Shown here: positions 1,289-63,641 of the stretch, piece by piece
How positions within the stretch are numbered: position 1 is the stretch's first letter
Layout: each line of letters starts with the position of its first letter
Source of the DNA: an uncultured bacterium
Lineage (GTDB): Bacteria > Lernaellota > Lernaellaia > JACKCT01
Direction: 5' to 3'
NCBI GenBank assembly: GCA_964591275.1
Contig: CAZQAE010000023.1
Span: forward strand, 6,333-70,332
DNA length: 64,000 nucleotides
Program-made: the position numbers and the translations under genes
Notes under the pieces: generated by a model
Seen by the model: only the letters and a program-made list of their open reading frames with translations
Database searches by the model: none
What the model was told of the DNA's origin: nothing

Positions 1289-1300
1289 TGTTCAATTCCC

Positions 1301-9403: not shown

Positions 9404-12400
9404 ATGCGAACGCCGGTAATTTTTTGGACTTTGCTTTTGGCTTGCCTGCTTTCTTTTTCTATTTCGTGCGGCGGAGGCGGAGACGACGATGATTCCGATG
9501 ATGACGATGCTGGGGAAAGCGAATACGGGGCCTGCTGCGTCGATGGCGCCTGCTCAGTGACAACATACGCTGATTGTTCCGGTTCCTGGCAGGGACCGGG
9601 CACGAATTGCGATCCTAATCCGTGCGTTGACGACGACGTGGATGATGACGTTGACGACGATGTTGATGACGACGCGGATGATGACGTTGACGACGATGTT
9701 GATGACGACGCGGATGATGATACGGACGACGACACAGACGATGATGCGGACGATGACGTAGATGATGATGACACAACGGAGCCGACAACAACGACGACTG
9801 TCGAACCAACGACCACAACGACGCAGGAGCCGACCACGACGACCACGGTTGCACCGACGACAACAACGACGCAGGAGCCAACCACGACGACCACGGTTGC
9901 GCCAACAACCACAACGACGCAGGAGCCGACCACGACGACCACGGTTGAGCCAACAACCACAACAACCACGCAGGAACCGACCACAACGACAATTGTCACA
10001 ACAACTTCGACAACAACCACGACAGGGAATCCCGACGCCGAGGAAGTTATCGTGCCTGCAGGTACTTTTTGGATGGGTTGCGAACCGGACGACTCTGAAT
10101 GTGAATTAAATCCGAACGAACATCCTCGACACGAAGTAGAAATGTCGGAATACTACATTGACGTGTTTGAAGTAACCAATGAGAAATACGCCCAATACAT
10201 GAACCTGCATAATCCTTTGAATGATTGCTATGACTACACATGTGTGGAATCGTCTCATAAGGCCAGTAGCAAAGGGATATATGAGGAAAGCGGAGTCTGG
10301 ATGGTTGACGAAAGATATGAGTCTCGTCCTGTAGTTGGCGTAACATGGTATGGTGCGTTAGCGTATTGCGAAGCACAGGATAAGTCTTTGCCGACAGAAG
10401 CGCAATGGGAAAAAGCGGCAAAAGGTGGAGATGAGCATTACATCTATCCCTGGGGTAATACATGGAACTATTATTCGACTAACTGGGCCAATCAGATGGA
10501 CGAATATGAAAGAATTTCAGAGTTGCCGAAGACAACTCCAGTGGGTTATTTTAATGGCGACATTTATGATGAAGGTACTATGTGGGAATACCAAACCATG
10601 GATGGACGCAGTCCTTACGGAGCACATGACATGCTCGGCAATGTTGACGAATGGGTCTATGATAGCTATCAAGCTGATTACTATTCTCAAACGCCCGCTG
10701 GAGGTTGGGTAGATCCTGTTGGCCCGGATGAAGTCAACCGCAAGGTATTTAAGGGAGGTAACTGGAATAATTCAAATCCAAGCTGGGAACAGAGAAACAG
10801 CCTTAGAGAAAATGAGCTTTCTTTTGATTCCAATGGTAGAATCGGTTTTCGATGTGCATTTGCCTCACCAACGACTACTTCCACAACAACGACTACGATT
10901 GCACCAACAACGACAACCACGGTTGCACCGACGACCACAACCACGCAGGAACCGACCACGACAACCACGGTTGCGCCAACAACCACAACGACGCAGGATC
11001 CAACCACGACGACCACGGTTGCGCCAACAACCACAACGACGCAGAATCCGACCACAACAACTATCGAGACTACAACGACGACGGTTGCGCCGACCACGAC
11101 CACGACGACCACGTCCACAACGACAACAACGGCGTGTCCGGGATGTTACATTGGAGAGACTTGTTTGGCGGAAGATGAGGTTAATCCCGACAATATCTGC
11201 GAAATATGCAAACCCGATCAGGATCGCTTCGACTGGTCCTCAAACGACGGCGAATTGTGTGACGATGAAGAATTCTGCAACGGAACGGATGCCTGCCTGG
11301 AGCGCACTTGTTCCGATCATTCAGGCGACCCCTGCCCGGATGATGGCTTATGGTGCACCGGTGTGGAAGGCTGCAACGACATTCTTGAAGAATGTGAGCA
11401 GCTCAACATCCCGGAATGTCCTGATGACAACCTGTTCTGTACCGGAAATGAATTCTGCGACGAGGTAAATGATCTGTGCGACAGCGAAGGCGATCCATGC
11501 GAAGATGGAACGATTTGCGATGAAGAGAACAATGTTTGCGTGACGACAACGACGACGACAAGCACATCCACTTCGACAACGACAACCGTTGAAACTACAA
11601 CAACCACGACCCAGGAACCAACCACGACGACTACAGTAGAACCGACCACAACAACCACGACAGGGAATCCCGACGACGAGGAGGTTTCCGTGCCCGAGGG
11701 CGCATTCCAGATGGGTTGCGAGCCGGAGGATGAAAATTGCTCAAATAATGAATCGCCCCGCCACGAGGTCTGGTTGTCCGCGTATTCCATCGATACATAC
11801 GAAGTGACCAACGAAAGTTACGCGGAGTTTCTGACTTGGCACGGCAACGTCTGCGAGGGGTACGGGTGCGTGGGTGCGGATTCTTCTTCTCTGCGCCTCA
11901 GCGAATCCGACGGCGTCTGGTCAGTCGATTCCGGTTATGAAGATCATCCTCTGGTAGAAGTGACTTGGTACGGCGCAAGGGCTTATTGCGAGTCGCAAGG
12001 CAAGCGTTTGCCGACGGAAGCCGAGTGGGAAAAGGCCGCCAAGGGCGCTGCGGAACACTACATCTACCCTTGGGGCGACACGATGATCACCAATGCCGCA
12101 AATTACAGGGACTCCGGCGACCCCTACGATAATGATACGACGCCGGTTGGATACTTCGACGGCAGCGACCACGGCGGCGCGTATCAGACAACTGATGGAC
12201 GCAGTCCTTATGGCGCGCACGATATGGCTGGCAATGTGTGGGAATGGGTGAACGACTGGTACTCGTCAACCTACTATTCCACCAGCCCATCAACCGATCC
12301 TCCGGGACCGGTTTCCGGTGGGTACCGTGTTTTGCGCGGCGGTTGCCGGGGCTATGGTTTCATGTACCTGCGTGCGTCGGACCGGGCCTCGGGCGTCCCT

Positions 12401-18242: not shown

Positions 18243-21200
18243 TCACAAATTCAACGATCTCTGTATTTCAAGATCGATTTTCGGTGATTTTCGCATCTCA
18301 GGCAAAACCGGCGGCAATTCATCTTCTGTGAACAGCGGTCCAGCGAGTATCTCCTCAAGAAGTTTCCGCTGCCTGGAATATGTGTTCACCGTTTCATCCA
18401 AAATGGCCAACAACTTGAGTAATTCCGTCGTAAAATCCGGCGTCCAGGATTCAGGACCAATGTCATCCAAAGGGGAAGATTTTCTGCCTCTGGGCGTTTT
18501 CATACGATTCGCCAACCATGACTGGACAACTTTCAAACCCGAAACTTTGAACTCCCAGACTTCCCTCCTTACGGGTGCAAACTCGCCTTCGCCCACTCGC
18601 AGCACTTCCGTGGACTCGTTATATCCGAAATCGTCCGGGCATTTGGCGGGAGAATTCGGCACATGTTTTGTGCATCGAATTTTTCCACGCGGAATTGCAC
18701 CCTTCTTTCGACCCTGTCCAGAGAATCGCTCACCGTATGTGTGGAGCCATATCAAACGCCGACCGATCTTTTTCATCTTTTCAAACAGTTCCCGATTTTT
18801 CGTCAACGGTACTCGTATTTCCTGTTTTCCCAACTCATCCCAAAACCGTTTGGCATATCCTGGATGCGCCAGAACACCGTAAAGATAAGCCGAAAAGTCT
18901 TCAGGTTTTATTTTGCGTGCGAAATCGTAATGTTGAGTCAGCAGTCCGAGAACCCCAATATTAATATTTGGGGATTTTAAATCTCGGTCCCGGTATAAGG
19001 GGACAACATCTTTAGCGCCTCTGCCGCAAAAGAAATGCAAATCAGGGGGAGCCGCAGCTACCGTCAGCGCGGGGCCAGCGCCAATAGGCTGAGTAAAAAC
19101 ACTCGCAAAATACAGTTGCTTTTCACTGTGACAAAGCCATATTGCCGGCCTTGGTCGAGAAATCAATCGACCATCTGCAATTATTTTTTGGTTATCAAAC
19201 GATCTATATGAATAATCCATCAAGGGAGGTATTGATGCATTTCGCGGTTCTTTTGCGATCGGAATAGTCCGGTTATTTTCTGTGAGACGTACACAATAGC
19301 TTTGATCAATTTTTCGATCCCCAGATTCTTTAAAAGCGATTCCTCGATTGTCGGCCCTTAATAGGCTATCCCATCTGTGTTTAAGTATTTCCTCATCAGG
19401 CGCAATTGGCCATTTGCGCTTCATTTGCACACCCGAATGTTGCCAGGGCATTAGGTCCGTTAAAAGCGGCCAGGAGAAGAATTTTCCCGTACCGTTAGGT
19501 TTGAAATTTCCCTGCCATTCTTCCGGGCACTTACGCCACTTAAGGGGCTTGAAGCCGGATATGGAGTCCAAAGCGTCGAGCTTATCCTTTTTTGACCCTC
19601 TGATACGGACGTAGCGCGTTGTTGCAGGCTCTTCTTTTTTCTCCGACGCATTCCTGAGCGCAATACAGATTGCCACCGGCGTCTGAATCGCAAAGATATT
19701 TTTCCCCTTTCGGGTTCCTCTTCCTTCTCCCCCAAGATCGATTATCCATATTTCGTCGCAGGTGCGGCGCATGTGCTCTCGCATACCGGAAAAAGCATCG
19801 CCCTCAAGATACGATGATGCGGAAATGAAAGAGACGATTCCCGGACCTTGGGAAGTCATATGCTCAAGAACCTTCCACAACGCCCAACGCCAGAAATATA
19901 TATAAAGGTTGTAGAGATTTTTTATATCTCCGCCATGTCCTGCTTTGACCGCGGGTTCAATGAAGTCTTTTAAGATCGGCTTTTCGCCCGGACGATTTTC
20001 ATCGCCATACCGGACCCAGCCGCCCGTGCGGACTTTATAATGAGGATCTGAATTATCCGCCGCATCGTGACGATCATAGGGCGGATTTCCAAGGCAAACG
20101 AAAACCGGAACCTTCTCCTTTACCCTTAATGCCAAACGATGCTGATTGCTGATTTCCCTGAGGATGGTTGTCAACTGAATCGGCTTGGCAAAAGGAGATT
20201 CCAGCGTGTCAGTCAAATACACTCCGAGGCCGTCTTTGGGAAGCGATGCCCCTCGGTCGATCAACGCGCGGCTGACCCGTAATTCCGAAACGGAGTAAGG
20301 GCCGACCATAATTTCAAAACCAAACAGGTTTTTTGCCAGGATCGAAGCACGCCCAGGGACAGCCCCTTTCCCTTCTTCGTCTTCAACACGATCCAGGGCG
20401 TGATCAATGACTCCAAGCAGGTATGTGCCCGTACCGACGGCGGGATCAAGCGTTATGACATCATTATCCGCGAAACCCGTCTGTTTATCGAATCTCTCCC
20501 GAAGCAACTCGTCAACCAAGCGTACCTGCGCGCGAACAACCTCAACAGGCGTATAGTAAACTCCAGAGTCTTTTCGCATCTTCGGATCGTAAACGGCGAG
20601 AAAATCCTCGTAGAAATACAGCCAGGGGTCTTCCTTTTTCCCATTGGCCATCACCTTTTCCGGAATGGCGTTCACGACGCGTTGAAGCAATTTCAACGAC
20701 GGTGGTATTTCCTCCCTGGCCAACGGGTCAGTCAGAATTTCCAACGCCTTTGAAAGCAATGTATGCTTGGCATATAGCTTCTTGACGGCATCATCGATGT
20801 CGGTGACCGCGGCGCCTTCGGATTTTGCCAAAAGAAGCGCAAAGGTCACTGTCTGTGCGTATGCGTCGGCGAAACGCGCGTTGCTTGCGTCTGGAAATAA
20901 AAGCTGTCGCCAGTCATTGGCAATGGCTGTGAGTGGAGATGAGTTATCGGTGAGGGCATCCGTCACATCGTCGCGCAGCATACGGCATAATGGAGCCAGA
21001 AGGGCGGCCAGTCCCTCCGGTTCATCCGGCGCTATTGGATTCCAAGTGATAAAATCCGTAATAAGCCGAGCCAGGGCAAGGGCGTCATTTTTCTGAATCG
21101 CTTTCTTGCCGTCGCTTGCGATGTCGCCTGAAAGACGAACCGCGCGACCGACACGTTCCCCATTTCTATAAAGCACCCAGTCATTCCCATCGCAATATAT

Positions 21201-21563
21201 TAGGTTTGGTATGGCCTTAAAGCGCATCCATTGATTTTTGTCATGTCCTCTATAACGAGCCGGATCGACGCCCTTTCCTGTTTCCTTCAATTCCATGTAA
21301 CCCTGAAGCACTCCGTCGAGCAAAACCGCATAATCAGGAATGCCAAGCCTGTGTAGCTTTGATTCTCCTTTTGCAATTATCTCCTGAGAGGTCGCCTGGC
21401 CAACCTCTTTCAGAAATATTTCAAGGGGCGAACGCAGTTGGTCCTCCGGGTGACCGTCAACCAATGCAGACATTTTCTTATGCACCGTCTCTGCAAATGA
21501 CTGCAATGCCTTATACACTGCTGTTTCAAGCGGCGTCATTTTTTGAATTGTCATTTTGCACAC
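18243..21563 (-). CDS. Single-chain restriction-modification enzyme of MmeI-like Type IIL (or Type IIG) organisation, 1106 aa
   Basis: The N-terminal PD-(D/E)xK-like element is IPDYAVLL...YMELKETG. Gamma-class N6-methyltransferase motifs are VYYTPVEVV, DPAVGTGTYLLGVI and CLGNPPYDRH. The C-terminal approximately 450 aa fits a target-recognition domain. The G+C content is lower than in the surroundings. Confidence 0.65.
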   Translation of the reverse strand: MCKMTIQKMTPLETAVYKALQSFAETVHKKMSALVDGHPEDQLRSPLEIFLKEVGQATSQEIIAKGESKLHRLGIPDYAVLLDGVLQGYMELKETGKGVDPARYRGHDKNQWMRFKAIPNLIYCDGNDWVLYRNGERVGRAVRLSGDIASDGKKAIQKNDALALARLITDFITWNPIAPDEPEGLAALLAPLCRMLRDDVTDALTDNSSPLTAIANDWRQLLFPDASNARFADAYAQTVTFALLLAKSEGAAVTDIDDAVKKLYAKHTLLSKALEILTDPLAREEIPPSLKLLQRVVNAIPEKVMANGKKEDPWLYFYEDFLAVYDPKMRKDSGVYYTPVEVVRAQVRLVDELLRERFDKQTGFADNDVITLDPAVGTGTYLLGVIDHALDRVEDEEGKGAVPGRASILAKNLFGFEIMVGPYSVSELRVSRALIDRGASLPKDGLGVYLTDTLESPFAKPIQLTTILREISNQHRLALRVKEKVPVFVCLGNPPYDRHDAADNSDPHYKVRTGGWVRYGDENRPGEKPILKDFIEPAVKAGHGGDIKNLYNLYIYFWRWALWKVLEHMTSQGPGIVSFISASSYLEGDAFSGMREHMRRTCDEIWIIDLGGEGRGTRKGKNIFAIQTPVAICIALRNASEKKEEPATTRYVRIRGSKKDKLDALDSISGFKPLKWRKCPEEWQGNFKPNGTGKFFSWPLLTDLMPWQHSGVQMKRKWPIAPDEEILKHRWDSLLRADNRGIAFKESGDRKIDQSYCVRLTENNRTIPIAKEPRNASIPPLMDYSYRSFDNQKIIADGRLISRPRPAIWLCHSEKQLYFASVFTQPIGAGPALTVAAAPPDLHFFCGRGAKDVVPLYRDRDLKSPNINIGVLGLLTQHYDFARKIKPEDFSAYLYGVLAHPGYAKRFWDELGKQEIRVPLTKNRELFEKMKKIGRRLIWLHTYGERFSGQGRKKGAIPRGKIRCTKHVPNSPAKCPDDFGYNESTEVLRVGEGEFAPVRREVWEFKVSGLKVVQSWLANRMKTPRGRKSSPLDDIGPESWTPDFTTELLKLLAILDETVNTYSRQRKLLEEILAGPLFTEDELPPVLPEMRKSPKIDLEIQRSLNL

Positions 21564-23667: not shown

Positions 23668-24168
23668 CTATGCTTCGGTGCCTTCATCTATGGGCGTTGT
23701 GTCTTCGTCGTCGATATCGACGCCCCCGCCAGACTCGGCGCTGCCGTTAGGATCCCCTTCCCAGAAATCCACCGACACGATGACCTGCATGGACTTGTAC
23801 GTGGCGACGACGGCCGAGTAACCCGCTGTTCCGGTGGCACTCAAAGCCGTCACGGCAACCCCGTCCACATCCGTTTCCATTTTGTTTTCCGAAAGCGCGC
23901 CGATGGTGGAAGTGACCACGATGTCAGCCCTTTCAATGGCCGAGCCGTCCGGCGCGTATAGCTCGACCAACACCGTGCAGGCGCCGCCCGAAAAAACGTC
24001 AAGATTGTCGGGTGAAACCGTGAGCTTTAAGGTCTGCCCCGCGTCATTGGTCATAACGGCCGATTCGGTTGTGAGAAAATCATCCTCGCAACTAAGAAGA
24101 GGCATCGCTATCAGCACGGCAAAAATTATGATTCCAACAAAACGCATTCTGGCTCCCGGTTTTCTCAC
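23668..24168 (-). CDS. Small secreted lipoprotein with acidic C-terminus
   Basis: The signal peptide and lipobox are ...AMPLLSC, followed by EDD. Confidence 0.5.
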   Translation of the reverse strand: MRKPGARMRFVGIIIFAVLIAMPLLSCEDDFLTTESAVMTNDAGQTLKLTVSPDNLDVFSGGACTVLVELYAPDGSAIERADIVVTSTIGALSENKMETDVDGVAVTALSATGTAGYSAVVATYKSMQVIVSVDFWEGDPNGSAESGGGVDIDDEDTTPIDEGTEA

Positions 24169-24500: not shown

Positions 24501-27032
24501 CTATGGCGCCAGTTGATTCTCATACACTTCATATTGCCGGCACGGCTGGCCGCGAAGCGCATGGCATTCGGGCAGGGCCGTCGGCACGTCGATTCCGGGA
24601 ATGACCGGAAAAACGATACTGGACGGAAAGGCTTCGTGATGAGAAATGATATTTGTCGGCGGCGTATCGAAATCCAAAAGCAAAAACCGCCATCGGGCCA
24701 TGCTGTCTCCAGGAGTGTCCACGGTTAACCGAATGCGGGAACCGGCTCTGAAAATATGGAGTATAGGCATAAATTCCACTCGCACTTCGTTCCACTGCCC
24801 GGCCTCAAGTGGAATAATATCCTCCTCATAGTGGGAAGAAATGGGGCGAAGCTCGGTGCTTTCTTCGAACAAGGTCCTGTGGCTGGCGCGAAGCCACCCG
24901 CTTTGGACGTATGACTCAAAATCATCCGGCCTCACTTCGGAAAGATTCACCTCCAGGTCCGCATCGTTGGCCGTGGACTGAAACCAAAGATCTACGCTTG
25001 CAGATCCCACGAGAACTACATCTTCTTCAAGGGGCGCTGTTAAAAAACTCACCGCCTTGCCGGGCACGGGTTGGCGGTAGTCCCAATTTGGTTGGAGATG
25101 ATTTACGGAGCCGCTGGCCAGATTCACTCTCTCCCCGGCTTCCGGATCGTGTTCGAATTCACAGGCCCCTCCATCTGTAGGAGGCAAATCTTCAGAAAGA
25201 CTTCCATCGGGTTGAAAATATAATCTTGTGGGCACTGTCGACGGGATAGGCCATTCGGGAAATTTCACTTCAAATGTGCCCACCGGCGCTCCGGGTTCCA
25301 CATCGGGGTGGGCGCCGGATTCGAAAATCACCCGTACCTCGTCTTCGGCTTCGTAATCGGCTTTCGCCTGCTCAAAATTCGTATAGGAAGCAAATCGATC
25401 CGGCCCGAAATCCATACCCTGTGAGCTTTCAAAGACATCTTCCATGAAAATTGGCACCAATAATCTGACCAGAAGGGGGATTCGGGGGATTTCGCCGGTG
25501 AGGTAAAATGACTGAAAATTGTGCCACTCCGTCAGGTTCTGCGGCGAATACCCGTCCATATGCACGCCGTTTGTTACGGTGAACCGAGTAACTGGAGCGC
25601 TTGTGAATTTATCGAACAGGGCTGGGGAATGGGGTCCGGTTTGTTCATCCTGCATCTGTCCTGCCATAAATACGGGAACGTTAATATTTTGAACAAACTT
25701 GCTGGGGTCCAGCGGCGCCGCTACCTCATCAGTGTAAAATGGATTTTCCAGCGCTTTTTCAATGGCATCCAGCAGTTGGCTGTGTAGAAGCTGATTTTCC
25801 TCGCAAATCGTGTCCCCGGCATCAACCAGTTCGGTTATCCAATCGTGAGCGTAGGGTTCTGCCTTGTTTAGAACCATTTCGATCCAGTCAAAGGCAAAGC
25901 CGTTGTTGTATATGCCTCCGGGAACCAGCGTGGAGGACACGGTGTCGGCAATGACTGAAAAAGGCGATATGGAAGCCAGGCTCGGCGGATTGATGGAGGC
26001 CACGAAAAGTTGCGTTATGCCGGGGTAAGACAAGCCCACCATAGCCACCTTGTGGTCAAAAACCCATTCCTGCGCTGCGATGGTTTCAATAACATCGTAT
26101 CCGTCAAGAAGCTGCAGCATCTCAAAATAATCGTAAGCCCCGCCGCTGCAACCAGTTCCGCGAATATTGACGCCCACTGTTGCGTAGCCGAGCACGTTGC
26201 CGATTATTCCGTAGGGGTGGTCGGGCGCATTGCAGAGCACTGGATACAGCCAGCAGAAGTTCTCGGCATCGCCGCCCACGCTTTGTCCGGGTCTTGAAGG
26301 CGTATATCCGGACAGATTTAACAAAGTTGGGTATGGCCCATCCTCCACTGGCCCGGGAAGCGAAACGAAAATCGAAAGCTGCGTGCCGTCGCGTGTAGTC
26401 AGGTAGCCGTAGCCGATATCCAAAACCTGACGATCGTAGAATGTTTGACGGGGTAGGCTTTCCTCCACTGACATGACGGTGAGTCGGTCAGTGTAATCTT
26501 CGTGATCTTCGGCAAGGCGAACAACATACCCCGCACCAGGTTCAAGTTCCCGAACGACCAGACTGCCCTGGTAATCGGTGGGTGATGAAAACACCACAGC
26601 GCCGCTCGGATCGACAATTTCAATCTCGGTGTCCGGCTCGCCGTTCCAGATATGAAGTTGCTCAACGCTTTTCCTGACTGAAAAGCTGCCTGAGACATGG
26701 GGAAATTTATCGATGCTGACGTCGTAATCATCGTCGATGTCATCATCGACATCGTCGTCCACGTCATCATCGACATCGTCGTCCGTATCATCATCGACAT
26801 CGTCGTCCGTATCATCATCGACATCATCGTCCGTATCATCGTCGACATCATCGTCCGTATCATCATCGGGCAATGGAGCGTTGTCGTCATCGTCAATGTC
26901 ATCGTCCGAGCCTCCGCCTGAATCGGAATCATCATTGTCATCGTCGTCACCGCATCCGGTCGACGTCAAAAGCAAGGCAAGCATGATCAGTATGAGGAGA
27001 ACTACGCTTTTCATCTGCATTTTCCATTTCAT
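24501..27032 (-). CDS. Secreted CocE/NonD (X-Pro dipeptidyl-peptidase, S15)-family alpha/beta hydrolase with lipoprotein polyAsp N-terminal linker
   Basis: The start at 27032 (MKWKMQMKS...LLTSTGCGDDDDNDDSD) is preferred over the track start 27101. The nucleophile elbow is VGLSYPG, with upstream NIRGTGCSGG. Confidence 0.65.
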   Translation of the reverse strand: MKWKMQMKSVVLLILIMLALLLTSTGCGDDDDNDDSDSGGGSDDDIDDDDNAPLPDDDTDDDVDDDTDDDVDDDTDDDVDDDTDDDVDDDVDDDVDDDIDDDYDVSIDKFPHVSGSFSVRKSVEQLHIWNGEPDTEIEIVDPSGAVVFSSPTDYQGSLVVRELEPGAGYVVRLAEDHEDYTDRLTVMSVEESLPRQTFYDRQVLDIGYGYLTTRDGTQLSIFVSLPGPVEDGPYPTLLNLSGYTPSRPGQSVGGDAENFCWLYPVLCNAPDHPYGIIGNVLGYATVGVNIRGTGCSGGAYDYFEMLQLLDGYDVIETIAAQEWVFDHKVAMVGLSYPGITQLFVASINPPSLASISPFSVIADTVSSTLVPGGIYNNGFAFDWIEMVLNKAEPYAHDWITELVDAGDTICEENQLLHSQLLDAIEKALENPFYTDEVAAPLDPSKFVQNINVPVFMAGQMQDEQTGPHSPALFDKFTSAPVTRFTVTNGVHMDGYSPQNLTEWHNFQSFYLTGEIPRIPLLVRLLVPIFMEDVFESSQGMDFGPDRFASYTNFEQAKADYEAEDEVRVIFESGAHPDVEPGAPVGTFEVKFPEWPIPSTVPTRLYFQPDGSLSEDLPPTDGGACEFEHDPEAGERVNLASGSVNHLQPNWDYRQPVPGKAVSFLTAPLEEDVVLVGSASVDLWFQSTANDADLEVNLSEVRPDDFESYVQSGWLRASHRTLFEESTELRPISSHYEEDIIPLEAGQWNEVRVEFMPILHIFRAGSRIRLTVDTPGDSMARWRFLLLDFDTPPTNIISHHEAFPSSIVFPVIPGIDVPTALPECHALRGQPCRQYEVYENQLAP
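26737..26880. repeat. Tandem 24-bp coding repeats (DDDTDDDV)n within the hydrolase gene
   Basis: The unit catcgtcgtccgtatcatcatcga is reiterated about six times. Confidence 0.8.
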
Positions 27033-35572: not shown

Positions 35573-36991
35573 ATGAGAAGTCCGACCTTAATAATTTCAA
35601 TTTCTGTTTTCATGATTTTTGTCGGCGCATTCGGCGCGGATATTTCCTCGGCATCGCCTTCGGTGAAAGGTGAATTCCAGATCATCGACGGCATTCGCGT
35701 GCTGCATGTGTGGGGCTCACATTACGAAATGGGCTACGCACACGGCTATTTGCTGGCCGATGATATTGTTGAGTTGTTTGACAAAATTTTAGTGCCATTA
35801 ATCGGCAACGCCGAAGGCATGGAAGAAAACCGAGTGCTCTTTCGCGACCGCTACGCCATGCCCGCGTGGCACATGGAAGAAACCCAGGGGATTATCGACG
35901 GTATCGCCGCATCAAGCGCCGGCCTTTTCGTACCGGTTTTGGGCCGGGATCTGGACGCGGATGATTTGGGGACAATGGATTCATTGTCCGACATACGCAC
36001 GGTGTACGAATGCTCATCGTTCGCCGCATGGATTGAATCTACAACATCGGATGCCGTGTTGCTTGGCGAATCGGCGCTTGCGCGCAATCTCGACTGGTTT
36101 GCGCCCTTTGGTCGTCCATACATGCTGGCGAAAAATACTCTTGTCATAGGTCGTGAACCGGATGACGCCCGCGCTACATTGACGGTCAGTTTTTCCGGAT
36201 TAACGGGTTGTTATTCGTGCATGAACGAAGCCGGCGTCGCCACGACGCGAATGATGTCCAATCACGGCACGCCGGGATGGCAGATGGATTTTTCCCGTCC
36301 CTTTACTCCCCTCAACATTGTCATGCGCGACGCTCTGCAGGCGCAAGACGTGGACGGAGACGGCGCCTCAACGGTGGCCGACCTGGCATTAGCGCTTTCG
36401 GAGTCGGTGCGTTCTTCGGCATACAACATCATGATCGTCGGTCCAACCAGCGCCGGACACGAACCGGTTGTCGCCGAAATCAACCACAAAGAGTTCGCTT
36501 TGCGTAGCGGTGCGGATAATACGGAACTGCCATCCAGCGTTCTGGCTTCGGTCAATAATATGCGCAAGTTGTACCCGCCGTATCCCGATGGTCGCTACAA
36601 CGCCATGAAGCGCGATGTCCTGGGCTGGAACGGCGAGATTACTTTGTCGCGGATGTGGGAGGTCCTACAGAGTATGAGCGACCAGTGGATGGCGACGCAG
36701 GCCATGATCTTCGTACCTTTCAACCGTAGTCTGGCCATTTCGTATACGGATGCCGAAGGACTGGCGCCCTTCAAATCACCCGTCTGGCTCGCGTGGGATG
36801 ATGTATTTGACCTTGGAGGCGATGACGACGACGTGGATGACGATGTTGATGATGACGACTCGGACGACGACGATTGGTTGCCCGATGACGATTCAGATGA
36901 CGATGACGCCAATGATGATGACAGCGAAGCAATGGATAATTCCATTGAAACCGACGAGGGGGATTCCGCAGGCAGAGGCTGCGGGTGTTAG
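35573..36991 (+). CDS. Secreted Ntn-hydrolase (peptidase C45 / acyl-CoA:6-APA acyltransferase-like) with C-terminal polyAsp tail ending GCGC
   Basis: It has a signal peptide. A putative autoproteolytic Cys lies in YECSSFAAW. The C-terminus is ...DDDDVDDDVDDDDSDDDDWLPDDDSDDDDANDDD...DSAGRGCGC*. Confidence 0.5.
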   Translation: MRSPTLIISISVFMIFVGAFGADISSASPSVKGEFQIIDGIRVLHVWGSHYEMGYAHGYLLADDIVELFDKILVPLIGNAEGMEENRVLFRDRYAMPAWHMEETQGIIDGIAASSAGLFVPVLGRDLDADDLGTMDSLSDIRTVYECSSFAAWIESTTSDAVLLGESALARNLDWFAPFGRPYMLAKNTLVIGREPDDARATLTVSFSGLTGCYSCMNEAGVATTRMMSNHGTPGWQMDFSRPFTPLNIVMRDALQAQDVDGDGASTVADLALALSESVRSSAYNIMIVGPTSAGHEPVVAEINHKEFALRSGADNTELPSSVLASVNNMRKLYPPYPDGRYNAMKRDVLGWNGEITLSRMWEVLQSMSDQWMATQAMIFVPFNRSLAISYTDAEGLAPFKSPVWLAWDDVFDLGGDDDDVDDDVDDDDSDDDDWLPDDDSDDDDANDDDSEAMDNSIETDEGDSAGRGCGC

Positions 36992-41037: not shown

Positions 41038-41478
41038 ATGAGGAATTTTAAGATATTCAACAGGCTGCCCTTCGCGTTGCTGCTTGTCATTCTCGTGGCA
41101 TTACCCATTGCGCTGATGGCCTTATCCTGCGGCGATGATGATGACGATGATGATTCGGATGACTCTCAAACCCAGACATGTCAACATAGCTATGAAGATG
41201 CATGCGAGTTCATTACCGATATCCAAGCTCCGAATGATTCGGATTTGAATTGTGTTGATGCTTTTGAATTCGGATTTGAAACGGTGAAGGAATGCCATGA
41301 AAACATTATCGAACCTCTCCTTGATTCCGAGAATCCCTGTGAAGTATTGGCCGGTGAATGCTTAAATACGATGAGTGAGATTGACGAAGAATGTAGTGAA
41401 GTGACGCCGACCAGTTGCGAAAACGCCTGGGAAATATGGAGCGAATGTCTGGTGATCGCCGAGCAAGAGGATTGCTGA
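41038..41478 (+). CDS. Small Cys-rich acidic lipoprotein with polyAsp linker
   Basis: The lipobox is LMALSC followed by GDDDDDDDSDDS, and the mature part has 12 cysteines. Confidence 0.5.
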   Translation: MRNFKIFNRLPFALLLVILVALPIALMALSCGDDDDDDDSDDSQTQTCQHSYEDACEFITDIQAPNDSDLNCVDAFEFGFETVKECHENIIEPLLDSENPCEVLAGECLNTMSEIDEECSEVTPTSCENAWEIWSECLVIAEQEDC

Positions 41479-42563: not shown

Positions 42564-42863
42564 ATGAAAGACTTGTTCATACTTCTCATCGCGACTGTTT
42601 TTGTGCTCGCCATCGCCTCGGTCAGTTTCGCCTGCGACGAAAATTCCGATGTCTCGGCAAAGGCGGATACGACGACGGCGGCGCCGAAAGTGTTCGACAA
42701 GGCACAGACCGTCGGGACGCAAGTCACCTGCCCTGTCATGGGCACTGTCTTTGCCATTGAAAAAGACACGATTCACAAAGAGTACAAAGGCAAGCACGTG
42801 TATTTGTGCTGCCAGGGATGCATTGAAAAGTTCAAGGCCGATCCGGGAAAGTATACAAAATAA
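42564..42863 (+). CDS. YHS-domain lipoprotein (putative Cu/metal binding)
   Basis: The lipobox is SVSFAC. The YHS/TRASH-like motif is TCPVMGTVFAI...HVYLCCQGCIEKFKADPGKY. The start at 42564 is preferred over the track ORF 42447. Confidence 0.65.
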   Translation: MKDLFILLIATVFVLAIASVSFACDENSDVSAKADTTTAAPKVFDKAQTVGTQVTCPVMGTVFAIEKDTIHKEYKGKHVYLCCQGCIEKFKADPGKYTK

Positions 42864-43169
42864 GCTCATCTCTCTTTCCTAAAATGACACCAAGAGCTTC
42901 TTGCCAAACACGGCAAGAGGCTCTTTGTCTGAAAGGGTAAAGAAAGAAGGCGGAAAGAGGTTCTCTTTCGTTTCAGAAAGAAAATTATTTCTCCCAATTA
43001 CCGCATTTTCGTTGACTACAGAGACATTGGAGAATTTCTCAACTTTTCCTTTTATCTTGACTTTCCAGAAGCAATTGACTATGGACGGAGGTCGCGAACC
43101 GTAAGTGTTCGCAGCTTTATTTTGCGCACTGCGCAGGGAAATATTCGGGGCTTGGTCTTTGAATCGGTA

Positions 43170-44534
43170 ATGAGAAAAGGAGAATGCAAAGTGAAAAATG
43201 CGTCGATTATCATTCTATTTGTCGTCATCTTTGCGGCATCAGCCCAGATGACTCCATCCTACGCCCTGGACATCGCCGAACTCCAAAAATCGATTGACGA
43301 AAAAGGCGCCGAGTGGACAGCCGGCGAAACAAAGTTTTCGCACCTAAGCGCCGAAGGGTTCGCGCAAATGCTTAACTATCCGCTGGAAACCCCCGTTTTG
43401 CCGGAAGGAAAGATTCTCCACGAGTGGAACGGCGAAGTTAAAGATGATCCCCCCGATCAGCTCGACTGGAGGGATTATAACGGCAAGAACTTCCTGACCT
43501 CGATCAAGGACCAGCATCCCTGCGGTTCGTGCGCCACCTTCAGCACCGTCGGCTGCCTGGAATCCCACATCAAGATCGTCATGGACAATGAATTCATCGA
43601 GCCGAATCTGGCTGAGCAGCTTGTATGGTCTTGCTCAGGCGGGATAATGCCGCCAGCCACTTTTTTTCATACTCTGGGATGGCTGCAAAGCGAGGGAACC
43701 GCGGATGAGGCTTGTTTTCCCTACGATGCCGAGGAGCAATGCGCCGACAGTTCCCTGGGCCGCGTCGATTGCGCGGAGCGTTGCGAGGATTGGGAAAACC
43801 GGACATACGGCATTGATGAATATCAATTTTTTATGTTCCAGCAGCCGGAAACCTTTATCCAACCTCTGCAAAGCGGCCCCATCGTCGCGGGCTTCATGGT
43901 CTTCGAGGATTTCCAGGACTACACCGAAGGCGTTTACGATCACACCACGGGAGCGATGCTGGGAGGCCACGCCGTGCTTATCGTAGGATACGACGCGCAG
44001 GAAGAGTACTGGATCTGCAAGAACAGTTGGGGAGCCGACTGGGGTGAAAACGGCTACTTCCGCGTTCGCTGGGGCGACGGCCTGCTCGACTTCGGCTACC
44101 AGGCCGCACACATGGACGTCAGCTTTGAAAGTGTTTGCGGCGGCAATGAAGCGCCCGCCATCAGCGATCTGGTCGTTTCCGGCAAAGCCGAAGGCGAATC
44201 CGAGATTCTCTTCAATTATGAGGATTTGGACGCCAATCTGGCCGGCGCCGAACTCTTTTATTCCATTGATGGCGGCGACTTTGTCCGTTTCGACTCCCCG
44301 ACCACGCAGCTCGTTGGCCTAAGCGGCGAAGCGTCATTTATCATTGCGGATGAATTTTCCTCCATCCAGGTTTACGTCAAGGACATCTGCGGCGTTGAAA
44401 GTAATCAACTCAATGTCGGCGAGCAAGTCGATGATGATGACGATGACACAGCCGATGACGACGCGGCTGACGATGACGAAGCCGACGGCGACGACGATGA
44501 CGACGATGATGACGACAGCGGATGCGGCTGTTAA
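43170..44534 (+). CDS. Secreted papain-family (C1A) cysteine peptidase with C-terminal beta-rich domain and polyAsp tail ending GCGC
   Basis: The active-site Cys box is DQHPCGSCATFS. The His region is GGHAVLIVGYD, and the Asn/Trp region is NSWGADWGENGY. The C-terminus is ...DDDDDTADDDAADDDEADGDDDDDDDDDSGCGC*. Confidence 0.8.
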   Translation: MRKGECKVKNASIIILFVVIFAASAQMTPSYALDIAELQKSIDEKGAEWTAGETKFSHLSAEGFAQMLNYPLETPVLPEGKILHEWNGEVKDDPPDQLDWRDYNGKNFLTSIKDQHPCGSCATFSTVGCLESHIKIVMDNEFIEPNLAEQLVWSCSGGIMPPATFFHTLGWLQSEGTADEACFPYDAEEQCADSSLGRVDCAERCEDWENRTYGIDEYQFFMFQQPETFIQPLQSGPIVAGFMVFEDFQDYTEGVYDHTTGAMLGGHAVLIVGYDAQEEYWICKNSWGADWGENGYFRVRWGDGLLDFGYQAAHMDVSFESVCGGNEAPAISDLVVSGKAEGESEILFNYEDLDANLAGAELFYSIDGGDFVRFDSPTTQLVGLSGEASFIIADEFSSIQVYVKDICGVESNQLNVGEQVDDDDDDTADDDAADDDEADGDDDDDDDDDSGCGC

Positions 44535-46531: not shown

Positions 46532-47173
46532 ATGAATATCTGGAAAAGCGCCATTCTTATCGCCCTGGTTTTGAGCTTGGTCTTGGCCGTAGCTTGTGGC
46601 GACGACGACGATGATAACCAGGGTTCCCCTTACCTTGACGACGATGCGGATGATGACGCCGACGATGATGATTTTTATGACCCCGCCTTTTCGTGTTCCG
46701 GCGAAGTCTGCACGGACCCGGCGGTGGGGTTGATGTGGCAAAATGAAGACACGGACAGGAAAACAGGTTGGAATGAATCCATTGATTATTGCCACGATCT
46801 TGACATGGGTGATGGCTTCGGCGGGTTTCACGGCTGGCGGCTGCCGACGATATCGGAGCTTCGCAGCTTGATCCGGGGATGCCCCGAAACGGTAACGGGC
46901 GGCGAATGCGCCGTTGCGGACGATTGCCTTTCATGGGGCGAATGCTGGGATGATTCGTGCCGTAGTTGTGAAGTGTTTGGCGGGCCTGGTTTGGAGGGGC
47001 GATACTGGCCCGAAGGCATGGAGGGCACGACAACCTTCCATTGGTCCGCGTCGGAAACCGATTATCCAGAAGATGAAAATGCGTGGCATGTTGTATTTGC
47101 CAATGGGTCAATAAGTAGGTCTGGAAAATCAGGTGCTATTGATTGCGGCACCCGCTGCGTTCGTGACCTCTAA
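46532..47173 (+). CDS. DUF1566 (Lcl C-terminal domain) lipoprotein, paralogue 1
   Basis: The lipobox LAVACG is followed by DDDDD. The DUF1566 core is GWRLPTISELRSLIRGCPE...RCVR. Confidence 0.75.
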   Translation: MNIWKSAILIALVLSLVLAVACGDDDDDNQGSPYLDDDADDDADDDDFYDPAFSCSGEVCTDPAVGLMWQNEDTDRKTGWNESIDYCHDLDMGDGFGGFHGWRLPTISELRSLIRGCPETVTGGECAVADDCLSWGECWDDSCRSCEVFGGPGLEGRYWPEGMEGTTTFHWSASETDYPEDENAWHVVFANGSISRSGKSGAIDCGTRCVRDL

Positions 47174-47202: not shown

Positions 47203-47841
47203 ATGAAGACTTGGAAAAGCGCCTTTCTTATCGCCCTGGTTTTGAGCTTGGTCTTGGCCGTAGCCTGCGGCGATGATGACGATGACCGTGGCTCACCCTA
47301 CCTTGACGACGACGCGGATGATGACGCCGACGATGACGATTTCTACCACCCCGCCTTTTCATGTTCCGGCGAAGTCTGCACGGACCCGGCGGTGGGGTTG
47401 ATGTGGCAAAATGAAGACACAACTTCATACACTAGGTGGGAAAGCTCCATTGATTATTGCGAAAGCCTTGACGCCGGGGATGGCTTCGGCGGGTTTCACG
47501 GGTGGCGACTGCCGACGATATCGGAACTTCGCAGCTTGATCCGAGGTTGCCCCGAAACGGTAACGGGCGGGAAATGCAACGTGACGGATGATTGCCTTTC
47601 GTGCGGCGAATGTTGGGGTGATTTGTGTTGGAATTGCGAACAGTTTGGCGGACCCGGCCCCGAAGGGCGCTACTGGCCGGAAGGTATGGAGGGCACGACC
47701 TATTGTTATTGGTCATCGTCGGAGCGTACGGATTCGGAATCAGCGAGTGCGTGGTATGCCAATTTTGCTATTGGATCAATAGACAGGATGGACACTTCCG
47801 GCTCTCAAGGCTTCGGCACGCGCTGCGTTCGTGGCCTCTAG
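47203..47841 (+). CDS. DUF1566 lipoprotein, paralogue 2 (about 85% identical at the 5' end to paralogue 1)
   Basis: The signal peptide, polyAsp linker and DUF1566 core are nearly identical to paralogue 1. The upstream region GGCGTGGACAACGAAGGGG-AAAATG is also conserved. Confidence 0.75.
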   Translation: MKTWKSAFLIALVLSLVLAVACGDDDDDRGSPYLDDDADDDADDDDFYHPAFSCSGEVCTDPAVGLMWQNEDTTSYTRWESSIDYCESLDAGDGFGGFHGWRLPTISELRSLIRGCPETVTGGKCNVTDDCLSCGECWGDLCWNCEQFGGPGPEGRYWPEGMEGTTYCYWSSSERTDSESASAWYANFAIGSIDRMDTSGSQGFGTRCVRGL

Positions 47842-47870: not shown

Positions 47871-49049
47871 ATGAAGACTTGGAAAAACGCCTTTCTTATT
47901 GCTCTGATTTTGAGCTTGGTCTTGGCCGTAGCCTGCGGCGACGATGATGATGATGATGACAGAGGCGGCGATGCTTATGTGCCGTCGGACGATGATGACG
48001 GTGGAAATGACGATCTCAATGATAACCAGGATGATGATGCAGACGATGACACAGACGATGATGACGAGCCAACGTGGACTGATCCAGATACCGGCCTTAT
48101 GTGGCTAAATCCGGGCCTCGCAGGCGTAGGGAGACTTTGGAATCAAACTTGGGAAGGGGCAAAACAAGCTTGTAATAATCTTACTTATGCCGGTTACAAC
48201 GATTGGTGGTTACCAACAATATCTGAATTGAGAACACTGGTACGTGGATGCCCGGATACAGAGACGGGCGGCAACTGCGAAATCACCGATGAATGTGGAA
48301 ACGATTGTGGCTCCCTTTGGTGTCGTACTTGTGACGAAAGTGACGCTCCTTTTGTAGGTTGTTTTTGGCCACATGGAATTGCAAACCTTGATATTGAGTT
48401 GAGCCTCTCTACTTGCGATGCTCATTGGTCTTCTACGCCAGTGTATGGTGATTACAGTTTAGCATATTATCTAAATTTCAGAGATGCATCTGTGGATTAT
48501 ATTTCAAAAACAAGGGAATATGCCACTCGTTGCGTTCGTAATGCCGACTCGGATGACGATTTGGATGATGACTCGGATGATGACTCGGATGACGATGGCC
48601 CCTGGACGGACCCTTCTTCAGGCTTGACTTGGCAAAACCCACATGATGAGCTTCTGCTTCCTCAAAATGGAGCGCATGATTACTGTTGGAGCTTGAGTCT
48701 TTTAGGCCAGGACGACTGGCGTCTACCTACGATCAGCGAACTGCGGTCACTAATCCGCGGCTGCGACCAAACCGAACTGGACGGCTCCTGCGGTGTAACG
48801 GATGCATGCTTGAGTCTGAGTGATTGTTGGAGCTATTCGTGCGATGGCTGTTACTATCTGAGCGGTCCTGGATCAGGTGGAGCTTATTGGCCTGATAGCA
48901 TATCAGGTAATATCGATTGGCATTGGTCAATTTCGCCGAATCCAGATGGCATTTTTGTTGGCCTTGGTTGGATCATCAATTTCACTGACGGTTCCGTTCA
49001 CAGTAATCGTGACGACAACGGCAGCTATGTTCGCTGCGTCCGTCCTTAG
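47871..49049 (+). CDS. DUF1566 lipoprotein, paralogue 3, with two tandem DUF1566 domains (392 aa)
   Basis: It has the same signal and lipobox. Domain 1 is WWLPTISELRTLVRGCPD...RCVRN and domain 2 is DWRLPTISELRSLIRGCDQ...RCVRP. The track ORF (47625) is over-extended. Confidence 0.75.
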   Translation: MKTWKNAFLIALILSLVLAVACGDDDDDDDRGGDAYVPSDDDDGGNDDLNDNQDDDADDDTDDDDEPTWTDPDTGLMWLNPGLAGVGRLWNQTWEGAKQACNNLTYAGYNDWWLPTISELRTLVRGCPDTETGGNCEITDECGNDCGSLWCRTCDESDAPFVGCFWPHGIANLDIELSLSTCDAHWSSTPVYGDYSLAYYLNFRDASVDYISKTREYATRCVRNADSDDDLDDDSDDDSDDDGPWTDPSSGLTWQNPHDELLLPQNGAHDYCWSLSLLGQDDWRLPTISELRSLIRGCDQTELDGSCGVTDACLSLSDCWSYSCDGCYYLSGPGSGGAYWPDSISGNIDWHWSISPNPDGIFVGLGWIINFTDGSVHSNRDDNGSYVRCVRP

Positions 49050-62036: not shown

Positions 62037-63641
62037 CTAGTGGCTCGATTTCATCTCGACAAGAAAAGACGGATTTTCCGATGCATCGCAGCGTAGCCCC
62101 GCAAGCTGCCCGAAAAGCCGTTCGCCGTTCGCAGCCAGCGTGGCGCATGCGCCGGTTAGTACAAGATTGATCGGCCGGAAAGTCGGCGAGGTCCAGAGCG
62201 TCGCTGGCGCGGATGCGGTTTCCGCGACGACAACTACATTGCTCACAGTCGGCCCAACCACGTGCACTTCGTATCCCATCTGATCGCCGCTGACTTTGAG
62301 TTCTATAGTCGCGCCGCTTTCCCCGCTCGCCAGGGCAAACAGGTTCGCGGCGGCAGGCTCTTGCCAATTGGCCAGCAACGTGGATCCGGGCGTCGTCACA
62401 CCCATGGAATCGACGGTCCCGCCGCCAATCCCCTGCGCCGCCACGCGAAAAATCACCGCAGGGGCATCCGTCATGCCGAGCGCTTCATCGAAGGAAAGAT
62501 CAAGAGATACGATCCTTTCACTCTCCGCGCCAAAAGCTCCGACAAAAACCGGCGGCCCCAGGCGATTGGGCTGACCGTCCACTGTTTCCACGTACCCCGC
62601 CGGCGCGTAGCCCCGCGCGTTTTCATCCATAAAGACATAGGCAGGTTTGTGCTCCGAGCCCACCATCTCCATGTTCAGCGCGCAGTTTGAAACGCCTGAC
62701 CGGAAGCCGTCGAAGAGATCGTAGTTGCCGTTAAAGATCCGCCCCGATGTATAGATCCGCGTCAGCCGCTGCGCCATGCGATTGGCCGTGTGCGCGGCAA
62801 TATCGTCCAACGCTTCTTCGCCGTCGTTAGTGAAATGCCCATCGCCTCCGAGCTGAAAAAAGGAAGGCGTCTGTGAAAATACCGAGCTTCCCGTTTCAAG
62901 AGCCAGCTTTCCCCGCATTTCAGCGATCGAGGGATAGCCCAGGACCTGCGCCAGTTCTATTAGAGGCAGCGCTGCAATTTCAAGCCTCGTCGCTTCATCC
63001 AATGCCGCAGTCATCTCCCGCACCCAGTCGGCAAGGGAGAAAAGTGGGCCTGCATCCGAAACCGGCGACGGTCCGACAAGAAACTCGTCGATAAGGGCGT
63101 TGAACTCATTCATAGTCGCCTCGTCGCTTCCGACGCCCCATTGAAAACCCACGACGATCATCTCGTGGTCCGCGTGCGTGTCGGACCACCAGCGAAGGTT
63201 CCGCAACATGCTCGAAAGCCGAACACTTTGCGTCGTTTCCGAATGGTTCACCCAGAAATCGCCGTCCTCGGTTTTGCTTGTCACATCGATTTCCAGAAAG
63301 AGCTGCCCCAGGTTTAGAGCGCGGATCAGGCCGAGGCTGGCAACCAGCGTGGTCGGTCCTCCCGGAGGACCGCGCCAGATGAAAGTGTTGTGGGAGGCAG
63401 CCATGTGCCAGGCGTTGATCGGCAAAGACGGACGCACGAACAGCGGCGCATATGAATCGTCGTCGCCCGTGTCGTCATCGTCGGCGTCGTCATCGGCATC
63501 ATCGTCGCCCGTATCGTCATCGGCATCATCGCCGTCGGTGTCGTCATCGTCAGCGCCATTATCATCATCGTCATCGCCAACGCAGCCGGGAAAGCCAACA
63601 GTCAAAAGCATTGCAACAAGCAGGAAAATCCAGCTCTTCAT
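62037..63641 (-). CDS. Secreted lipoprotein with long polyAsp linker and a TIM-barrel phosphodiesterase-like (PI-PLC X-like?) domain
   Basis: The start at 63641 (MKSWIFLLVAMLLTVGFPGCVGDDDDDNGADDDD...) is preferred, as the track ORF is over-extended. The segment AWHMAASHNTF is weakly PLC-X-like. Confidence 0.4.
   Translation of the reverse strand: MKSWIFLLVAMLLTVGFPGCVGDDDDDNGADDDDTDGDDADDDTGDDDADDDADDDDTGDDDSYAPLFVRPSLPINAWHMAASHNTFIWRGPPGGPTTLVASLGLIRALNLGQLFLEIDVTSKTEDGDFWVNHSETTQSVRLSSMLRNLRWWSDTHADHEMIVVGFQWGVGSDEATMNEFNALIDEFLVGPSPVSDAGPLFSLADWVREMTAALDEATRLEIAALPLIELAQVLGYPSIAEMRGKLALETGSSVFSQTPSFFQLGGDGHFTNDGEEALDDIAAHTANRMAQRLTRIYTSGRIFNGNYDLFDGFRSGVSNCALNMEMVGSEHKPAYVFMDENARGYAPAGYVETVDGQPNRLGPPVFVGAFGAESERIVSLDLSFDEALGMTDAPAVIFRVAAQGIGGGTVDSMGVTTPGSTLLANWQEPAAANLFALASGESGATIELKVSGDQMGYEVHVVGPTVSNVVVVAETASAPATLWTSPTFRPINLVLTGACATLAANGERLFGQLAGLRCDASENPSFLVEMKSSH

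Follow-up and report, generated by a model that had tools for sequence, protein, structure and literature searches.

Architecture of the lipoproteins in the window

The stretch of DNA analyzed here (64 kb from an uncultured bacterium, contig CAZQAE010000023.1; called the window below) encodes seven predicted lipoproteins that carry an Asp-rich run behind the Cys expected to be lipid-modified. In the open reading frame (ORF) that starts with the ATG at 47871, MKTWKNAFLIALILSLVLAVAC is followed by GDDDDDDDRGGDAYVPSDDDDGGNDDLNDNQDDDADDDTDDDDE and then by PTWTDP..., ahead of the first Lcl_C domain. The segments of the seven ORFs are as follows.

47871..47936, plus strand: signal peptide and predicted lipobox LAVAC of the third Lcl_C gene (47871-49049); Cys codon at 47934-47936
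47937..48068, plus strand: 44-residue Asp-rich tether with 25 D and a net charge per residue (NCPR) of -0.57, from the Cys to the first Lcl_C domain
48543..48602, plus strand: Asp-rich linker ADSDDDLDDDSDDDSDDDGP that joins Lcl_C domains one and two of the 47871-49049 protein
46532..46672, plus strand: first Lcl_C gene (46532-47173), with signal peptide and lipobox at 46532-46597 and a 25-residue Asp tether at 46598-46672
47203..47340, plus strand: second Lcl_C gene (47203-47841), with signal peptide and lipobox at 47203-47268 and a 24-residue Asp tether at 47269-47340
41038..41166, plus strand: small Cys-rich lipoprotein (41038-41478), with signal peptide, lipobox ALSC and the 12-residue tether GDDDDDDDSDDS
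26952-27032 (within 26724..27032), minus strand: signal peptide and lipobox TSTGC of the S15/CocE-NonD hydrolase gene 24501-27032
26724-26951, minus strand: tether of the S15 hydrolase, 76 residues with 50 D; a 24-nt tandem array lies at 26727-26868
9404..9514, plus strand: double FGE-sulfatase lipoprotein (9404-12445), with signal peptide, lipobox SISC and the first tether GGGGDDDDSDDDDAG
9623..9778, plus strand: second Asp array of the 9404-12445 protein, a 52-residue (DDDx)n stretch with 12/24/36-nt repeats
63453..63641, minus strand: lipoprotein 62037-63641, with signal peptide and lipobox FPGC at 63582-63641 and a 43-residue tether VGDDDDDNGADDDD... at 63453-63581

Lipoproteins were predicted by a rule that combines a positively charged n-region, a hydrophobic h-region and a lipobox of the type [LVI..][ASTG..][AGS]-C about 15 to 45 residues from the start. 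As candidate Lgt/LspA substrates, this rule selected the seven ORFs, two others in the window and three elsewhere on the contig. The n-region, the h-region, the lipobox Cys and the Asp-rich stretch are present in all seven ORFs, with tethers of 12 to 76 residues. An initial annotation had described the seven as lipobox-Cys-Gly-poly-Asp starts. The signal peptide, the lipobox and the Asp stretch were recovered in each case, but two proteins depart from the Cys-Gly-Asp order: 62037-63641 continues as C-V-G-D5, with Val at +2, and the 9404 protein as C-GGGG-D4, its long (DDDx)n array coming only after a small Cys-rich module. The other six ORFs named there were picked up again by a regular-expression scan and then by the rule-based predictor. 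In the window, +2 is Gly in six proteins and Val in one, with Asp from +3 or later, and over a wider set the residues seen at this position were G, S, A, D, N and V; Gly at +2 is a preference only.

A long Asp run was found in seven of the nine lipoproteins predicted in the window. The remaining two start with C-E-D-D and C-D-E-N-S-D, respectively, and were used for comparison:

23668..24168, minus strand: comparison lipoprotein without a long run, LLSC followed by EDDF...
42564..42863, plus strand: comparison lipoprotein that contains a YHS domain and whose acidic start is short, SFAC followed by DENSD...

The three lipoproteins predicted on the contig outside the window also carry poly-Asp, which raises the count to 10 of 12 on the 77.8-kb contig.

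Matches to Pfam support the earlier statement that unrelated domains lie behind the Asp starts. The 9404-12445 protein has two FGE-sulfatase domains, the 24501-27032 protein has Peptidase_S15 and PepX_C, the genes at 46532, 47203 and 47871 encode Lcl_C (= DUF1566), and the 41038 and 62037-63641 proteins matched no Pfam family. The three Lcl_C genes are tandem paralogs with 81.6% nucleotide identity, and their signal-peptide DNA is 85 to 94% identical; the window therefore offers five independent instances rather than seven. Five different signal peptides occur among its poly-Asp lipoproteins, and the four that do not belong to Lcl_C proteins differ in sequence and length.

Several metagenome-assembled genomes (MAGs) of the FEN-like type repeatedly place small acidic Cys-rich lipoproteins of 80 to 200 aa, which match no Pfam family, behind poly-Asp tethers. 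Besides window gene 41038-41478, they were seen at comparison loci L010, L057, L070, L073, L079, L096 and L121:4610. They may form an undescribed family, their likeness having been judged by eye.

Composition and placement of the Asp tracts

The linkers of the seven window lipoproteins have an NCPR of -0.53 to -0.75 and a mean hydropathy of about -2, and together they contain 150 Asp and a single Glu. Strongly charged chains are expanded and disordered according to established polymer arguments, and the composition suggests that the Asp tracts are disordered as well. The cytoplasmic proteins are not acidic (D 6.4, E 7.1, K 6.1 and R 6.7%), a composition that rules out an acidic proteome of the halophile type.

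Segments with at least 5 D in 8 residues were detected in nine window genes, all of which encode signal peptides, and in none of the remaining 29 of the 38 listed window genes, which are mostly cytoplasmic. With an Asp background of 6.4%, the probability that one particular stretch of 8 residues reaches this density is about 6e-5 per protein by our own calculation, and a chance origin of the runs is thus excluded. Poly-Asp, first noticed at N-termini, is not confined to them: some of these segments serve as inter-domain linkers and others lie at C-termini, in front of GCGC.

Repeat arrays and length drift

Tandem Repeats Finder (TRF) reported an array of period 24 with 5.9 copies and 92% matches at 26727-26868, an array of period 36 with 96% matches at 9626-9720 and weaker arrays at 47305-47338, 48033-48063 and 63456-63578. 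The initial annotation spoke of near-perfect 24-bp repeats, which is accurate for the first array, whereas 9629-9770 is less perfect, with 75% matches at period 24.

For comparison, the near-identical ENA metagenome contig ERZ27317826:k141_891046 (77.8 kb) was used. In the S15 gene, the array of the window is longer by one DDDTDDDV unit (24 nt) than that of two ENA assemblies from different samples. In the FGE gene (9404-12445) of the window, the (DDDx)n array exceeds its counterpart in the ENA contig by 36 nt, and a Thr-rich array does so by 96 nt. No indel was found outside the repeat arrays in about 68 kb aligned among three near-identical assemblies. The in-frame tandem DNA repeats adjoin the lipobox on its 3' side and their copy number varies between closely related genomes, both of which are features of size-variable lipoproteins. 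The predicted hypervariability of run length is borne out by the 24- and 36-nt indels in (DDDx)n arrays, with the caveat that these are short-read assemblies and that MEGAHIT k141 may mis-size arrays of such length. The short arrays of the Lcl_C genes showed no variation: contig L002 from a second sample is 99.95% identical over 4.2 kb and has no indels. In the cluster of the 47871 protein, one member of 356 aa was considered as a length variant and rejected, as it is merely a 5'-truncated copy that is not recorded as a gene.

When the 62037-63641 gene was compared with its orthologue in a relative of 92% nucleotide identity, the signal peptide was 87% identical and the linker 57% identical with 30 gap positions; the remaining 1405 nt were 91% identical and had no gap. 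Of 120 orthologues of the S15 hydrolase (50 to 83% identity), about 86 have a recognizable lipobox, followed by linkers of 0 to 113 aa. The longer ones contain about 20 to 50% D/E in unrelated sequences (DGD, PDA, etc.), and the closest orthologue (83%) has a linker of 36 residues compared with 76 in the window.

Two observations concern the FGE-sulfatase lipoprotein itself. Its Thr/Pro-rich linkers (PTTTTTxE)n are encoded by 48-nt tandem arrays at 9778-9990 and 10883-11061, the first of which is the one that varies by 96 nt. In its second FGE-sulfatase domain, residues 900-945 (about 12100-12240) hold a cluster of substitutions relative to the otherwise 99.99% identical ENA contig, which could reflect a difference between strains or recombination of one FGE domain with the other.

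Distribution in relatives and in other phyla

The TypA protein of the window shares 77% identity with its counterpart in Ca. Lernaella stagnicola and 73% with the one in Ca. Alcyoniella australis; the group after these reaches at most 68%, and Polyangia/Kofleriaceae about 60%. These identities place the host in or close to Ca. Lernaellota (= FEN-1099). A tblastn comparison of 30 window proteins with the 115 chunks of the GTDB scan described below had yielded no more than weak, scattered hits. A JGI contig of about 92% nucleotide identity (L118), which represents a sister species, encodes OEP (TolC-like) and OMP_b-brl proteins and thereby indicates that the lineage is diderm.

Loci of relatives were fetched with TypA as the anchor, independently of the motif. 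At the TypA locus of Ca. Lernaella stagnicola, all five predicted lipoproteins start with C-G-D5-8, four of them being Lcl_C paralogs. Among the close TypA relatives, L121 has poly-Asp on one of two predicted lipoproteins, in the form of about 20 consecutive Asp, and L120 on two of six; a LemA protein of L120 with a lipobox, missed by the predictor, is also without a run.

When one genome per GTDB species was scanned for [AG]-C-G-D6, the result was at least 115 chunks of 8 kb, with 119 matches among those listed, and 110 of these 119 lie directly behind a Sec- or Tat-type signal segment. Most hosts among the matches listed belong to Chloroflexota and Actinomycetota, and some to Myxococcota, Bacteroidota and Lachnospiraceae. 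In FEN-1099 and other MAGs among these matches, the run goes on as (DDDx)n, as it does in the window. Non-seed lipoproteins in the same 8-kb chunks were then scored for at least 4 D/E in positions +2 to +13. Among the chunks listed, such an acidic start was found on 10 of 19 neighbouring lipoproteins in the FEN-like group, compared with 2 of 28 in Chloroflexota and others, 0 of 9 in Actinomycetota and 0 of 8 in Myxococcota. The short C-G-Dn start thus appears to be sporadic and widespread, with habitual use apparently confined to the Lernaellota lineage. The initial annotation proposed a convention at the level of the organism; the convention finds support in the five signal peptides and in the three further cases on the contig, but its level is that of the lineage, Ca. 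Lernaellota, with short versions in several phyla.

Comparison of the window with L118 also revealed differences in gene content. L118 lacks the window segment 38043-41798 (3.7 kb), which holds three genes for secreted proteins, including the poly-Asp lipoprotein 41038. Instead, it has a 5.7-kb insertion beside an ArsA-like gene, with two genes of the type NTPase (KAP or NACHT) + FGE-sulfatase. This difference indicates that the genes for secreted proteins are located in variable islands. Elsewhere in the window, regions 1-8200 and 18243-21563 contain genes resembling those of defence islands, namely, an SNF2-family helicase with NOV_C, a DUF1156 protein and HEPN_Swt1 with DUF499, as well as a separate restriction-modification-like gene with N6_Mtase and Type_ISP_C.

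A mirror arrangement at the C-terminus

Three proteins of the contig show the reverse arrangement. They are secreted proteins of the signal peptidase I (SPI) type, have no lipobox and end with an Asp-rich block followed by GCGC and the stop codon. Two are encoded in the window:

36809..36991, plus strand: C-terminal Asp-rich block of a C45-like SPI-type secreted protein (35573-36991), ending ...GRGCGC-stop
44421..44534, plus strand: C-terminal Asp-rich block of a papain-family SPI-type secreted protease (43122-44534), ending ...DDDSGCGC-stop

The third (L123:495-2003) lies just outside the window and ends ...GCGC. The GCGC ending is kept in the L118 orthologue of 35573-36991, the gene ending at 13210. 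A metagenome scan for D4...GCGC-stop returned at least 119 stretches (loci L128-L246). Among the matches listed, 80 unique long ORFs have this ending (51 with TAA, 29 with TAG); 55 of them start with a signal peptide without lipobox, 3 with a lipobox and 3 without signal peptide, and 19 are truncated. Their domains are diverse, and many of those listed come from Ga0272444, Ga0116164, Ga0116156, Ga0315273 and ERZ795059. The N-terminal Cys-poly-Asp and the C-terminal poly-Asp-GCGC appear, from these sequences, to be largely alternative.

GCGC is the signature motif of MYXO-CTERM (TIGR03901) and is present in all three contig proteins. In that system, which has a generic GCGC motif, the Cys is predicted to be lipidated, myxosortase then removes the transmembrane (TM) helix, and type II secretion (through the T2SS) delivers the protein to the cell surface (Guo, Haft & Wall 2025, PMC11980579). 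No TM helix or Arg-rich tail follows GCGC in the window proteins, as the stop comes directly after it, and the tail-less GCGC ends matched no NCBIfam model. A TM helix and Arg tail hidden past the stop, to be reached by readthrough or frameshift, was considered and rejected: only 3 of the 80 listed examples have a TM+RR-like sequence downstream. A subtilisin-like protein of a FEN-1099 MAG (L070:4444-6222, minus strand) has a D-rich region, SGCGC, a TM helix and RRRR, and matches TIGR03901.2 with 27.4 bits at a cut-off of 20. MYXO-CTERM was reported to be restricted to Myxococcota (Haft preprint, 10.1101/2023.06.07.544157), and this match shows the full domain outside that group.

Two kinds of protein seen in the scan combine features of both ends. 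In a 70-aa ORF of L241, a signal peptide with lipobox leads into C-G-D6..., further Asp repeats and then GCGC-stop, so that poly-Asp alone links the two anchor motifs and there is no globular domain. A family of about 220 aa (L133, L144, L164, L175, L181, L219) has an SPI signal (...LAFAQ) followed at once by D-rich repeats, and a poly-Asp-GCGC end, and thus has poly-Asp at either terminus.

Interpretation

Poly-Asp is best read as a standard spacer beside a Cys-based anchor at either end of a protein; its presence in front of the C-terminal GCGC, a signature for which lipidation is predicted, leads to the spacer reading for both ends. With somewhat more confidence than doubt, and on the evidence of sequence, we regard it as the disordered, polyanionic tether by which this lineage as a standard joins a Cys-based membrane anchor to unrelated cargo. 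What the sequences show is the architecture and composition of the tracts, where they occur, the differences in repeat length, the use between domains and the mirror arrangement; lipidation, disorder, the physics of the spacer and the place of the proteins in the cell are inferred. The precursors would be handled by the ordinary Sec/Lgt/LspA route, and the mature protein would start at the lipid-modified Cys. A small residue, mostly Gly, would come next, followed by a presumably disordered tether of 12 to 76 residues made of D-runs and DDDx units, in which charge and position are kept and the sequence is not. Units of the 12/24/36-nt tandem repeats are gained and lost, with rapid drift in length. 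The highly charged chain would be unable to collapse or fold, and repulsion from the anionic membrane surface would hold the cargo off the bilayer. Such a chain would also keep positive charge out of the early mature region, to the benefit of Sec export.

Several points weigh against a passive tether. Its almost pure Asp and its immediate start at +2/+3 are not obviously needed for a spacer. Poly-Asp and non-poly-Asp lipoproteins occur side by side in one genome (L120, with its LemA protein; 23 versus 29 in a further tally), and a class-specific signal accounts for this at least as well as a generic spacer does. The differences in repeat length could in part be artefacts of short-read assembly. 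Finally, the export signal SDDDD of B. fragilis, a proven sorting signal, is very similar at +2 to +6 (PMC5080379).

The main alternative is a signal function, in which the Asp run would sort or export the lipoprotein to the cell surface, acting either like the lipoprotein export signal (LES) of Bacteroidota or through inner-membrane retention (Lol avoidance) followed by type II secretion, with the C-terminal tag using the same route. A role in surface export is possible, and we hold it as a tentative explanation that deserves roughly one vote in four. The LES suffices for surface exposure from positions +2 to +6 (PMC5080379), the run begins at +2/+3 in every case counted, the lineage appears to be diderm, and the T2SS takes MYXO-CTERM proteins to the surface (PMC11980579). 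The cargo is suggestive as well: much of what follows poly-Asp is of the exo-enzyme or adhesin type (GH92, GH3, GH88, PAE, penicillin amidase, S15, CAP, PKD, Lcl_C), and some lipoproteins without it are housekeeping-like (AhpC/TSA-thioredoxin, TPR, LemA). However, this split is suggestive in small sets, and the Pfam content of the two classes overlaps in larger metagenome sets (penicillin amidase, cytochrome c, rhodanese), where the set without poly-Asp includes false positives (CstA, DctM). Up to 76 residues and a fast drift in length are needless where 4 to 5 residues do, and D-blocks double as inter-domain linkers. None of the seven window proteins has the Asp at +2 on which Lol avoidance in E. 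coli depends. In addition, among the matches listed, C-G-D6 also occurs on lipoproteins of Chloroflexota and of the monoderm Actinomycetota and Lachnospiraceae, and in the monoderms there is no need for outer-membrane sorting.

A bolder version combines the two ends of the protein. Poly-Asp beside a terminal Cys would then be a code reserved for surface display in Ca. Lernaellota and neighbouring groups, with two interchangeable anchors and a single T2SS- or LES-like route, and the tail-less GCGC-COOH would represent a new class of C-terminal lipidation or anchoring without TM helix or myxosortase cleavage. The CXC ends of eukaryotic Rab-type proteins, as opposed to CaaX ends, provide an analogy. 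We consider this code doubtful, if attractive.

The run might also be a stalk that binds cations (Ca2+, Mg2+, other metals or mineral surfaces) and serves in envelope bridging, in cation storage or in the attachment of cells or enzymes to mineral particles. The near-exclusive use of Asp over Glu (150 to 1) and the DDDx periodicity resemble poly-Asp mineral-binding proteins such as osteopontin, and the runs are limited to extracytoplasmic proteins. This function is nevertheless improbable: length is not kept between orthologues, the cargo is unconnected to metal metabolism, and the constant adjacency to the anchoring Cys is left unexplained.

Alternatively, the runs could be a largely neutral by-product, in which GAY-rich microsatellites expand by replication slippage in tolerant linkers and prevalence reflects mutation bias. 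The repeat units are 92 to 96% identical at the DNA level, indels between near-identical genomes are multiples of 12 nt, the Thr/Pro-rich arrays of the FGE gene behave likewise, and an Asp-only composition matches the growth of one codon family. We nonetheless judge this to be very unlikely, given that the feature persists over Lernaellota genera (TypA 73 to 77%) and many protein families, is strictly placed beside anchor cysteines at both termini and is absent from cytoplasmic proteins. Orthologues elsewhere remain acidic with different sequences (DGD, PDA repeats), which indicates selection on charge.

The scenario named at the outset as the one that would undo the convention, the recent duplication of a single signal-peptide/poly-Asp cassette, fits the three Lcl_C paralogs and is refuted by the other four signal peptides, the additional examples on the contig and the occurrence of the motif in other Lernaellota genomes and at more than 100 GTDB loci.

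Significance

To our knowledge, rules for the sorting and display of lipoproteins are known for a few phyla only: Enterobacteria follow the +2 rule, Bacteroidota use the LES, and Borrelia exports to the surface by default. In the present case, a candidate phylum without a cultured member shows an easily recognized rule, an Asp tract that abuts the anchoring Cys either at the N-terminus or in front of a C-terminal GCGC. Should the tract be a signal, acidic sorting of the LES type would reach beyond Bacteroidota and be tied to display of the MYXO-CTERM/T2SS type. Should it be a spacer, it would be a natural polyelectrolyte tether whose length is tuned by repeat slippage, and it would be useful for the engineering of surface display and for telling, with nothing but sequence at hand, which proteins uncultured degraders expose (glycosidases, peptidases, Lcl_C proteins). 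For annotators, the low-complexity starts are real, and gene lengths at the arrays are unreliable in short-read MAGs. The N-terminal tether alone would be a moderately surprising lineage rule; its pairing with a tail-less tag resembling MYXO-CTERM makes the question of anchoring and sorting directly testable.

Comparison with known systems

The literature searched yielded no account of poly-Asp tethers on lipoproteins or of GCGC ends without a tail, an absence that is not proof, and the paper describing Lernaellota mentions neither lipoproteins nor acidic tracts.

In Mycoplasma hyorhinis, the Vlp proteins have a lipoprotein signal followed by charged tandem repeats of variable copy number; their units are 12 to 13 aa long and provide antigenic and size variation to a wall-less pathogen. 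Here, in contrast, DDDx units are found on enzymes of an apparently free-living diderm.

Avoidance of the Lol system in E. coli relies on Asp at +2, and pullulanase is a lipoprotein secreted by the T2SS. The likeness is that Asp near the lipid-modified Cys sets the fate of a lipoprotein, and inner-membrane retention may precede T2SS export. However, +2 is Gly or Val in the window proteins with poly-Asp, and C-D-E occurs only in the 42564 protein, which has no long run.

Outer-membrane lipoproteins of E. coli possess functional disordered N-terminal linkers with a role in Lol trafficking (El Rayes et al., 10.1101/2021.01.05.425367). In both cases, a segment that is, or here should be, disordered leads from the lipid anchor to the globular domain, and length and disorder, presumably here too, count rather than sequence. 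By the length criterion of that study, more than 22 unstructured residues between Cys and globular domain, five of the seven window linkers are long, the shorter ones being those of 9404 (15 aa) and 41038 (12 aa). The linkers of E. coli are neither polyanionic nor repeat-encoded, and their role in Lol trafficking is experimental, whereas the tethers described here are known from sequence.

The LES of Bacteroidota, which in C. canimorsus is K-(D/E)2 and in B. fragilis SDDDD, drives surface exposure (Lauber et al. 2016, PMC5080379). It shares with the present tracts an acidic run right after the lipid-modified Cys on many unrelated lipoproteins, and SDDDD is close to the G-DDDD seen here. G-D4-7 at +2 to +8 resembles SDDDD in position, yet Gly or Val occupies +2 and the run continues well past +6. 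The LES comprises 4 to 5 residues, has a polar or basic residue first and is specific to its phylum, whereas the tracts have 12 to 76 residues of near-pure Asp, are repeat-encoded and variable in length, and belong to Ca. Lernaellota. With Ca. Lernaella stagnicola and Ca. Alcyoniella australis as the nearest TypA relatives, the host falls outside Bacteroidota.

The C-terminal arrangement finds its closest counterpart in MYXO-CTERM. The window proteins differ from it in having no TM helix, no Arg-rich tail and no model match; they share with it a GCGC behind a probably disordered region at the C-terminus, and the protein of the FEN-1099 MAG that passes TIGR03901.2 brings the complete form of this tag into the same lineage.

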